From the IMG/VR virus record IMGVR_UViG_3300033121_001869, positions 45,076 to 109,075 of that record: a DNA stretch of 64,000 bases; one strand, 5' to 3'. The number at the start of each line of letters is the position of its first letter. The stretch's first letter is position 1. The notes below the pieces were generated by a model, which did no database searches, had not been told where the DNA came from, and was given only the letters and a program-made list of their open reading frames with translations. Positions 62,147 to 64,000 of this stretch are shown in pieces. A program made the position numbers and the translations under genes. The stretch is from a virus. Taxonomy: Duplodnaviria > Heunggongvirae > Uroviricota > Caudoviricetes.

Positions 62147-62431
62147 ATGACAATAAGCGAAATTGGAATAAAGGGATATAAATCATTTGGAAATAATGAA
62201 CAAATACTCAAACTAAATACAGATAAAGGTGAACTAATACTATTGGTTGGTAATAATGGAAATGGTAAGTCCGTAACGCCAAATACCAAAATAGAAATTG
62301 AAATGCCTCTTGAAAGTTTAAACTTAGAAGATTTTAACAAATTTTTGGAAATAATGGGGAAGGAAAGTAAGTATATTTTATATATAAAGGAGAACAATTA
62401 TTCTCTATATGAACAATATATTAATCAATAA
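62147..62431 (+). CDS. gp46: gp46/SbcC-like ATPase N-fragment plus putative split-intein N part
   Basis: IKGYKSFGN and GNNGNGK Walker A, then SVTPNTKIEI (intein block A-like) and stop. Confidence 0.78.
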   Translation: MTISEIGIKGYKSFGNNEQILKLNTDKGELILLVGNNGNGKSVTPNTKIEIEMPLESLNLEDFNKFLEIMGKESKYILYIKENNYSLYEQYINQ

Positions 62432-63959
62432 AAAACAATTAGATGATTATATTTCTGATTTTCATCCTGATAAAAAAATTGAAATCCTAGAAAAATTCAA
62501 TAATTTTAATTTTGATTGTGGCAGAACTTCTTTTCTTACAAAAATGAAGAAAATCATTTCGATGCCAAAATTTGGAAAAAGAACAATTATTTATTGGATA
62601 AGTAGAGGATGGTCAGAAAAAGATGCTTTAGAAAAGAGAATTCCAGACAACAAAGATCCTGAAACATCACCAATGAATATAAACTTTTGGATGAAAAGGG
62701 GATATTCAAAATCAGATGCTGAGTTTGAAATAAAATCCAGAAGAAAAACAAATAAAGAATATTGGATAAAAAGAGGATTTTCAGAAGCTGATTCCTTACA
62801 AAAGGTGATAGAATTTCAAAAAACTTCTAACTCAATATTTATACAGAAAATTAATTCGGATATAAATTATCGTGAATCTGTTAATTCTAAAAGAACTAAT
62901 AACTTAAAATATTGGATTAATCTTGGATATTCAGAAGATGAATCAATAAAAAAAGTTTCTGAAAGACAATCAACATTTTCATTAAAAAAATGTTTAGATA
63001 AATATGGTATAGAAGGTCATAAAATTTGGCAAGACAGGCAGGTAAAATGGCAAAAATCACTAGCACTTAGTCACTACAATGGTAAGGATAAAAAGGACTC
63101 AAAAACTATTGAATTTTTCAAGAAAAAATATCCAGAAAATTGGATAGATCAATATTTTAATAAAATATCCTTCAAAGAAAAAGATGATATAATGTTTTTA
63201 ACATCTTTTGAAAATTATAAAGATTTAATAGACTCATTGATAGTTGATAAATGGCAGTTAAGTGAAATATCCTATATTCTTAGATATAAGATAATAAGTG
63301 AAATATACAATTGTTCGGATATTGATATGTTTGAATATTTACATCTTAATTATGAGAAGTACTCAAAAACTCCTGATTACTATCACAAAAATTATCCAAA
63401 TTGGATAGATAAATTTATAAAAGACAACAGCTATAAAGACGAAAATACTATTAGAAATCTTTTAAATTTCAAAGATTATAAAGAAATGATTATTTATATG
63501 ATTGATAATTATAGAATTACAGACATAAATATTTACTTACAAAGTAAGCTAATATCTTATTTCTATAAAACAACGCATAAAGAAATGTTTAATTTTTTAG
63601 TAAATAGTGAGCCTACAATAAAATCAAAATACGGGCATATTAGATATTTTAATAACCATATCTGTCGAAGTGATGCTGAATTTTTATTGGCAAAATTTCT
63701 GATTGATAATAATATAAAATATGAATATGAAAAAAAATATGAAAATACATTGAAAAGATGTGATTTTTATCTTAACGATTTTGATTTTTATATTGAATAC
63801 ACAGGAATGCAAAAAAACTCAATTTGTAATACCAAATACAAAGAAAAACAAAAATTTTGTTTAGATAATAACATAAATTGCATTTTCTCAAACAACATTA
63901 AGGAAATAAAAACTAAAATATTAGATGAAATTAAATTTAACAATAGAACAACTGAATAA
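62409..63959 (+). CDS. free-standing homing-type endonuclease, PD-(D/E)xK C-terminus
   Basis: repeated YWI.RG.SE..A units; YEYEKKY...RCDFYL...IEYTG. Confidence 0.75.
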   Translation: MNNILINKKQLDDYISDFHPDKKIEILEKFNNFNFDCGRTSFLTKMKKIISMPKFGKRTIIYWISRGWSEKDALEKRIPDNKDPETSPMNINFWMKRGYSKSDAEFEIKSRRKTNKEYWIKRGFSEADSLQKVIEFQKTSNSIFIQKINSDINYRESVNSKRTNNLKYWINLGYSEDESIKKVSERQSTFSLKKCLDKYGIEGHKIWQDRQVKWQKSLALSHYNGKDKKDSKTIEFFKKKYPENWIDQYFNKISFKEKDDIMFLTSFENYKDLIDSLIVDKWQLSEISYILRYKIISEIYNCSDIDMFEYLHLNYEKYSKTPDYYHKNYPNWIDKFIKDNSYKDENTIRNLLNFKDYKEMIIYMIDNYRITDINIYLQSKLISYFYKTTHKEMFNFLVNSEPTIKSKYGHIRYFNNHICRSDAEFLLAKFLIDNNIKYEYEKKYENTLKRCDFYLNDFDFYIEYTGMQKNSICNTKYKEKQKFCLDNNINCIFSNNIKEIKTKILDEIKFNNRTTE

Positions 63960-64000
63960 TCTTCAAGAATCATTCAATCTAATTGATAATTATGAAATAA
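63925..64000 (+). CDS. 5' end of the presumed intein-C/gp46-C gene (partial)
   Basis: ATG 63925, MKLNLTIEQLNNLQESFNLIDNYEI open to window end; not in track. Confidence 0.5.
   Translation, partial: MKLNLTIEQLNNLQESFNLIDNYEI

Follow-up and report, generated by a model that had tools for sequence, protein, structure and literature searches.

How can a DNA-repair ATPase be made from a gene that is interrupted within its ATP-binding loop and carries a foreign gene between the two pieces? The question is raised by a locus at the end of a 64,000-nucleotide (nt) stretch of virus DNA, hereafter the window, which covers bases 45076-109075 of the IMG/VR record IMGVR_UViG_3300033121_001869 (182,437 bp, estimated to be 79% complete). 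The carrier is a large wastewater phage, and its gene for a DNA-repair ATPase of the Rad50/gp46 type is in two pieces. We consider it very probable that this is a fractured gene, in which a class 1 intein residing in the Walker A loop was broken by a free-standing homing endonuclease gene, and that the products of the two pieces are a trans-splicing pair. Downstream DNA was added beyond the window end (L002, bases 107000-122000 of the record; window coordinate = L002 coordinate + 61924).

The intein and its host gene

In the window and its downstream extension three overlapping open reading frames (ORFs) follow one another on the + strand, in the successive frames 0, +1 and +2 (Table 1). ORF1 reads MTISEIGIKGYKSFGNNEQILKLNTDKGELILLVGNNGNGK, then SVTPNTKIEIEM...; its Walker A context, ...LLVGNNGNGK, is followed by SVTPNTKIEI.... 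ORF3 starts with MKLNLTIEQL... and extends 1.9 kb beyond the window end. A preliminary description, made from the window alone, had taken ORF1 for a gp46-like N-terminus that ends in GNNGNGK and passes into a Ser-initiated intein start, and had seen in other frames a 516-amino-acid (aa) endonuclease ORF lying across its stop and a third ORF, from ATG 63925, lying across the end of the endonuclease gene. All of these elements are present. The description had also made its case hang on the ORF downstream, which was found to encode the motifs SPLH, DLWDIEVDG and SHN and a +1 Ser, and to continue the gp46/Rad50-like protein.

The intein extends from Ser42 of ORF1 to Asn124 of ORF3, and Ser125 is the +1 residue. 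Block B lies in ORF3 as S61-P62-L63-H64 (context ...GSPLHRV...), with Ser replacing the Thr of the T-x-x-H motif. G60, S61, P62 and H64 are nearly invariant in the family of C-terminal pieces (C-pieces), and H64 aligns with the block B His of the VidaL intein. Blocks F and G, which include DLWDIEVDG and SHN/S (the slash marks an intein boundary, here and below), read DLWDIEVDGHEYYSNGILSHN up to the splice junction and SSLLESFEYTLYGK after it. In the C-piece alignment D104, L105 and G112 are invariant and H123, N124 and S125 are conserved; HN/S is present in every C-piece checked. The NCBIfam model intein_Cterm matches ORF3 with 16.0 bits against a cut-off of 15.6, and ORF3 residues 10-125 match the crystallised VidaL intein with an E value of 5.6e-6, the block B His and the terminal block being aligned. 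The first position of the intein is occupied by Ser in 53 and by Cys in 32 of 85 clusters of N-terminal pieces (N-pieces). Direct reading of the window sequence finds no Cys in the N part of the intein (IntN, 53 aa), in its C part (IntC, 124 aa) or in the 41-aa N-extein.

Uninterrupted alleles locate the insertion site. The 567-aa gene of related phages (L003/L004) reads ...GQNGAGK/STLLRSVDFSLYGK. Joining K41 to S125 in the window gives GNNGNGK-SSLLESFEYTLYGK, a junction of the same length as that of the empty alleles, GK/ST(S)LL, and the DNA alignment with the empty alleles breaks directly after the GGN AAR codons for Gly-Lys. A contig from the riverine sequencing run X6 follows the end of the N-extein (window 62222-62271, L002 298-347), diverges exactly at the insertion point and continues SSLISSFDYA after GK; it represents the intein-less allele of a related phage in the sample. 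By its sequence motifs the element is classed as a class 1 intein situated in the Walker A loop (GK/S) of a Rad50/gp46/SbcC-like ATPase. The loop is interrupted between Gly-Lys and Ser, and is therefore not functional unless the pieces are ligated.

Both exteins point to the same host protein. The N-extein gives weak SMC_N, AAA_23 and SbcC matches, and it shares 67-88% identity with the N-termini of the uninterrupted homologues found in 43 viral loci. The C-extein comprises a Rad50/SbcC body with a CPTC zinc hook, a signature motif and Walker B, the last with an SbcC_Walker_B match of 28 bits against a cut-off of 27; ORF3 further matches the Rad50 zinc hook and the Rad50 and SbcC structures of the PDB, and a modelled homologue has the Rad50 fold. 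The N-terminal Walker A, the long coiled coil with its CPTC zinc hook, the signature and Walker B are shared with T4 gp46, Rad50 and SbcC. The identity to T4-like gp46 is only about 23-25%, and in contrast to T4 gp46/47 no adjacent gp47/Mre11 gene was found beside the ATPase of the window. The same record combines a Rad50-like ATPase under selection with searches for an Mre11/SbcD/gp47-type metallophosphatase that drew a blank. Among related proteins, P0317 (1017 aa) combines a Metallophos domain (residues 2-193) with a related intein (448-571); it is possibly an Mre11-Rad50 fusion with an intein of this kind. Source annotations name the N-pieces ABC-transporter ATPases or 'ATP-binding protein involved in virulence', labels that are of practical concern for annotation.

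The layout recurs outside the window. Two further sequencing runs yielded contigs (11.2 and 10.5 kb) that span the whole 4.3 kb without joints or indels and differ from it by a single substitution; the frame changes are therefore no assembly error. The same three ORFs, each with its own ATG, are found in six further viral loci diverged to 38-80% identity, and in these the overlaps between ORFs vary from 11 to 38 nt. The preliminary description had seen no room for intron RNA structure, and this agrees with our searches: neither a group I intron nor any other RNA family was matched in Rfam at E up to 1, and the locus has no non-coding space.

Table 1. Features of the fractured ATPase locus in window coordinates; positions beyond 64000 are window-equivalent
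Feature	Position	Strand	Description
ORF1	62147-62431	+	94 aa; N-extein and IntN
N-extein	62147..62269	+	first 41 aa (M1-K41) of the Rad50/gp46/SbcC-like ATPase; ends in GNNGNGK
IntN	62270..62431	+	S42-Q94, 53 aa plus stop
ORF2	62409-63959	+	516 aa; next frame; 23-nt overlap with ORF1
ORF3	ATG 63925 to 65886	+	653 aa; third frame; 35-nt overlap with ORF2; L002 2001-3962
IntC	63925-64296	+	ORF3 M1-N124, 124 aa
C-extein with +1 Ser125	64297-65883	+	529 aa; stop ends at 65886

The break and the gene that fills it

Contiguous versions of the gene, 712-743 aa long in the protein database, carry the N-extein, a whole mini-intein and the C-extein in one chain, and they locate the break. ORF1 and the contiguous homologue P0007 can be aligned gap-free over residues 1-87 of both (64% identity, E 2e-36), and residues 1-150 of ORF3 likewise pair with P0007 residues 85-234 without a gap (64% identity, E 5e-67). 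The two ORFs tile the contiguous protein and meet at residue 85/86, the position of the break. At its end ORF1 has nine residues, SLYEQYINQ (62402-62428), that overlap the start of ORF2; this tail and the initial Met of ORF3 are read as parts of the inserted cassette. IntN is composed of 44 aa homologous to contiguous inteins and the 9-aa tail. The homologous part holds Ser1 and the first strand, SVTPNTKIEIEM, followed by some 30 aa that form a helical insertion. In ten contiguous forms the position of the break is a loop of variable length between two helices, and the contiguous form P0049 almost lacks the helical segment that precedes the break.

The Hedgehog/intein (HINT) fold was demonstrated on P0007, which is 64% identical to both window pieces and was used as a stand-in for IntN plus IntC. 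The AlphaFold2 model of P0007 (mean predicted local distance difference test score, pLDDT, 74.8) presents in order the first strand, two short helices (residues 60-80), the break, and a strand and a helix, the last two of which we tentatively read as the rest of block A. Of all structures matched, VidaL fits the model best: residues 39-207 superpose on it with Z 15.5 and a root mean square deviation (rmsd) of 2.1 Å over 138 of 145 residues. The next-best matches are the DnaB, NrdJ-1, RadA and gp41-1 inteins, with Z of 12.8-13.9. Foldseek spreads the alignment of P0007 with VidaL, a target of 145 residues, over 173 columns, as would be expected from an insertion of some 30 residues.

The break falls on the N-terminal side of block B, leaving blocks B, F and G in IntC, and the split is therefore atypical. 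The preliminary description had proposed as much, and the closest solved relative, VidaL, is itself atypically split. VidaL and PolB16 have their S1-type split in this region too (PMC13014065), the correspondence being at the level of the region only. The short N part of about 54 aa foreseen by the description does exist and measures 53 aa; its shortness did not hold, the known natural atypically split inteins having an IntN of 15-37 aa. Over the 85 N-piece clusters the length of IntN ranges from 32 to 66 aa.

The gene between the halves, ORF2, begins with helical repeat modules (residues ~55-225), continues with a helical middle part and ends with a Vsr-fold nuclease domain (residues ~403-513, window 63615-63947). 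Scans of ORF2 with Pfam, PHROGs and NCBIfam gave nothing usable, and its identity consequently rests on homologues, of which the database holds 135, and on fold. In the AlphaFold2 model (mean pLDDT 88.9) residues 411-513 superpose on the catalytic domain of I-Bth0305I (3r3p) with Z 8.9 and rmsd 2.9 Å over 91 of 98 residues; Foldseek gives the same pair a probability of 0.99 and a template modelling (TM) score of 0.61 on the target. The domain also matches the DUF559-like protein 3hrl (Z 8.6) and Vsr (1cw0, Z 7.1). The claim of the preliminary description that ORF2 is an endonuclease gene is borne out to the extent that the fold is of the Vsr/I-Bth0305I type. Over its N-terminal 220 aa ORF2 shares 39% identity (E 9e-38) with the N-terminal part of proteins whose last domain is DUF559/Vsr. 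The repeat modules, four in number, have the pattern YW-x-RG-x-SE (window 62571-63083) and are visible in the DNA as repeats 75-168 nt apart; the internal modules of ORF2 were the sole repeats found in a repeat search of the locus, and they matched none of the Pfam NUMOD models. A second repeat pair, K-x-SKT...YP-x-NW, occurs further on in ORF2.

Vsr-like endonucleases of the EDxHD family were first found in fractured genes (PMC2677866, PMC3239194). ORF2 shares with I-Bth0305I and this family the fold of the C-terminal domain, and its N-terminal domain is homologous to that of the relatives ending in DUF559/Vsr; it differs in being longer, in having an extra helical middle domain and in lacking GDxxH. 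The conserved residues of ORF2 are R420-S421..E424, D452, E463 and K480, and the 28 relatives with the same C-terminal module conserve RS..E, DFY, Y.E, G and K. The best PDB sequence match of the ORF2 family profile is T7 endonuclease I (E 0.015), over the E/D/E-x-K region, and the conserved RSxxE, DFY, YxE and K resemble this enzyme more than they resemble the EDxHD enzymes. ORF2 is best described as a sister lineage of the EDxHD enzymes with a replaced or remodelled nuclease module.

A related locus may show the other end of such a replacement. At the same intein site in L008 (3407-4504, + strand) the middle ORF is only 365 aa long and shares its N-terminal domain with ORF2; its end aligns over the full length to a DUF559-bearing protein, and we read in it what appears to be a canonical EDxHD motif, IEFNGDVYHG...ERD. 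The two middle ORFs differ in the nuclease end and share the N-terminal domain, so that a common DNA-binding scaffold seems to have received different nuclease modules by exchange. Two weak tblastn matches were found beside intein-less gp46-like genes, in each case on the opposite strand: one to the nuclease end of ORF2 (L013:2029-2343, - strand, E 0.002) and one to its residues 237-488 (L023:5936-6682, - strand, E 0.006). Both may represent free-standing endonuclease genes related to ORF2 that lie next to the same target gene.

Together these parts suggest a mechanism. An endonuclease gene would have landed in the variable loop near the N-terminus of the intein and broken the intein in two. 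ORF1 (41-aa N-extein and 53-aa IntN) and ORF3 (124-aa IntC and 529-aa C-extein) would be translated separately, and IntN would supply Ser1 and the first strand to an almost complete IntC, whereby the HINT fold would be completed. Trans-splicing would proceed via oxyester intermediates, engaging Ser1, Ser+1 and the cyclisation of the terminal Asn124, and would yield a 570-aa ATPase with an intact P-loop, GNNGNGKSSLLES. ORF2 would act as the mobility engine, a modular nuclease that cuts element-less alleles in co-infecting phages; recombinational repair would then copy in the endonuclease gene, alone or with the intein. Homing repair in T4-type phages depends on gp46/47, gp46 being the double-strand-break resection ATPase. 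If this dependence holds in the phage of the window, the element occupies a gene that its own spread relies on.

Allele states, selection and alternative explanations

Fifty related loci were recovered from IMG/VR, 43 of them intein-less and seven fractured; all fractured loci keep a gene in the position of ORF2, and identity among them goes down to 38-40%. A large protein collection contains at least 58 clusters of C-pieces, 85 clusters of N-pieces (94-107 aa) and about 30 clusters of full-length ORF2. Against representatives at 50% identity IntC finds 352 related clusters, and in about three quarters of the best 150 of these it stands, by a count of start positions, at the very N-terminus; the label 'fractured' rests for most database proteins on this start with IntC. 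All three allele states, the empty gene, the contiguous mini-intein and the fractured form, were recovered from metagenomes. The related IMG/VR loci include no contiguous allele, and a scan of metagenome contigs with the contiguous form P0011 returned no relative. The most distant fractured relative (L048:2966-6408, 38-40% identity) has Cys at intein position 1 and a middle ORF of 432 aa.

The intein is distributed patchily among its hosts. On a maximum-likelihood tree of 99 C-exteins its presence requires 22 changes, at least 18 of which are forced by well-supported branches. The empty gene of L042 and the fractured P0041 differ at 2 of 537 residues. The contiguous P0036 and the fractured P0024 are 97% identical and have identical IntC, P0024 starting with MKFK where P0036 has RRHV. 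Nearly identical host genes are found in different states, which argues for recent movement of the element. The pattern fits an element that is still moving, in either direction, by gain through homing or by precise loss.

Comparison of the window with L006 gives ratios of non-synonymous to synonymous substitution rates (dN/dS) of 0.10 for IntN, 0.11 for IntC, 0.07-0.17 for ORF2 and 0.10 for the C-extein, values that are rough, dS being near saturation. Judged by these ratios, IntN, IntC, ORF2 and the extein appear to be under purifying selection.

Several observations weigh against a trans-splicing pair mobilised by ORF2, and the saturation of dS and the basis of the label 'fractured' belong among them. 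Splicing is invisible in sequence data, and we infer it, together with the activity of the nuclease and its target. Ser1 inteins reportedly have a highly conserved histidine in motif NX ([KR]-H), missing from 2 of 58 (PMC10189870); between residue 1 of IntC and block B no [KR]-H was seen by eye, a judgement made without structural superposition. The expected NX segment of the family is occupied by the conserved K37..G40-I-T42-S43, with an invariant-looking GITS. No Mre11/SbcD/gp47 partner was found in the 182-kb, 79%-complete record with a T4-like gp47 protein, Pfam Metallophos (PF00149) or a scan for the motif D.H...GD...GNH; related records do give metallophosphatase matches, which are weak in the two fractured relatives. 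ORF2 and all 28 relatives that share its module lack GDxxH, a part of the EDxHD motif, and the catalytic mechanism and activity of ORF2, as far as residues can tell, are uncertain.

The alternative that survives best, an unlikely one in our estimation, is that the two ATPase pieces work unligated, held together non-covalently by intein halves that do no more than dock. There are documented cases of phage enzymes that are fragmented and reassemble without splicing: the NrdA of an Aeromonas phage, split by an endonuclease gene, reassembles via interaction domains (PMC3045599), and the fractured genes of Dassa 2009 include an SbcD-like one that has no intein and was broken by a Vsr-like endonuclease gene. 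The NX histidine that is not evident in the window intein would be of a piece with mere docking. Against this, the break falls inside Walker A between GK and S, and an unligated pair would have about 177 foreign residues at the ATP site. The splice residues (Ser/Cys1, the block B His, the block F Asp, HN and the +1 Ser) are moreover kept across at least 50 clusters, in Ser1 and Cys1 lineages alike, and docking alone would not require their full conservation.

Still more improbable is a dead or decaying gene, disrupted by a selfish endonuclease and retaining the intein pieces as relics. Endonuclease invasions do inactivate genes, and the failure to find an Mre11-type partner in the record would suit such a history. 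The three ORFs are intact, however, at this locus and at six diverged ones, dN/dS stays near 0.1 throughout, exteins included, and dozens of clusters of each piece occur in metagenomes of several habitats. Least probable is an unreal three-frame layout. It could stem from errors of sequencing or assembly within an endonuclease-containing contiguous intein, from a programmed frameshift giving a single polypeptide, or from a group I intron with an endonuclease gene, and overlapping ORFs that step through the frames 0, +1 and +2 suggest it. Against it, the contigs of other runs agree without indels, six loci have three ORFs with their own ATGs but differing overlaps, contiguous relatives join IntN directly to IntC with no endonuclease domain, the break precedes block B, away from the canonical endonuclease-domain site, and the locus offers neither an Rfam match nor non-coding space.

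Relation to known systems and minor features of the locus

The fractured, trans-splicing reading places the window intein beside the natural atypically split inteins AceL-TerL, GOS-TerL, VidaL and PolB16. VidaL (PDB 6vgv) is the closest solved relative by sequence and, as judged on the contiguous homologue, by fold. It too is broken near the N-terminus, before block B, and its terminal block and +1 Ser correspond to those of the window intein, the crystal construct having HAS in place of HNS. VidaL is cysteine-dependent and has an IntN of 16 aa (PMC13014065), whereas the window intein has Ser1, no Cys and an IntN of 53 aa; VidaL also lacks the helical insertion of about 30 aa found in the window IntN.

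PolB16 OarG is the only known natural cysteine-less atypically split intein according to a 2026 paper (PMC13014065). The window intein resembles it in its Ser1/Ser+1 chemistry, in the natural split near the N-terminus and in the phage or metagenome origin (PMC10189870, PMC13014065). Compared by description, PolB16 differs in its host, a PolB polymerase, in its 15-aa IntN, in its NX histidine and in its two non-essential cysteines; the window intein sits in a Rad50-like P-loop, has no cysteine at all and no evident NX histidine, and its IntN is longer. AceL-TerL and GOS-TerL are likewise natural split inteins with a short IntN (25 and 37 aa), and GOS-TerL has Ser1. Their host is the terminase large subunit, the split follows helix alpha1 (the S2 position) and the +1 residue is Cys, so that they are not cysteine-less.

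The locus as a whole resembles the fractured genes of Dassa 2009 (gp41-1, gp41-8, NrdJ-1, IMPDH-1 and a terminase locus), in which half an intein is attached to either half of a host gene, the two being separated by a free-standing endonuclease gene of the Vsr-like or GIY-YIG type; frames often overlap and the origin is mainly phage. Eight host enzyme types are listed in that survey, and Rad50, SbcC and gp46 are nowhere mentioned in it. All of its loci but one break at the canonical endonuclease-domain site, whereas the break of the window intein is N-terminal, and the family of the window differs further in having all three allele states recovered. The locus shows a known arrangement of a selfish element; the host gene is new and the break point unusual. 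A full-text literature search, most subscription journals lying outside its coverage, turned up no paper that connects Rad50, SbcC or gp46 with an intein.

We put forward tentatively, with confidence somewhat short of even, that a VidaL-related intein family in phage Rad50-like genes is abundant and undescribed, that the window intein is the second natural atypically split intein to be fully cysteine-free, and that ORF2 represents a new branch of the Vsr fold with a T7-endonuclease-I-like acidic site. If this is correct, the family offers a natural series of Ser1 and Cys1 variants, near-isogenic contiguous and split pairs, and variants nearly without the helical insertion of IntN, and the series would allow a direct test of how an endonuclease gene fractures an intein. 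A short-IntN, redox-independent tool for trans-splicing might also be derived from it. Cysteine-independent split inteins with one short fragment are sought for protein labelling in oxidising conditions; a single natural example has been named, and further natural candidates are said to be lacking (PMC13014065). The family of the window would add dozens of natural sequences, Ser1 and Cys1, and the value of the window intein lies in being cysteine-free, abundant and available in natural contiguous and split versions. The locus presents three stages of the proposed route side by side, some of them in almost identical host genes, with an endonuclease gene that landed away from the canonical endonuclease-domain site.

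Minor features of the locus concern its expression. A promoter scan of the locus found fewer promoter-like sites than in shuffled sequence, and no terminator. Contigs of three metatranscriptome runs contain the locus; these contigs may derive from DNA. Just before and over the start of ORF2, at window 62374-62420 (L002 450-496), the segment TATATATAAAGGAGAACAATTATTCTCTATATGAACAATATATT is more conserved at the nucleotide level than the neighbouring codons in all five fractured loci aligned, and this conserved DNA may be an expression signal of the endonuclease cassette.

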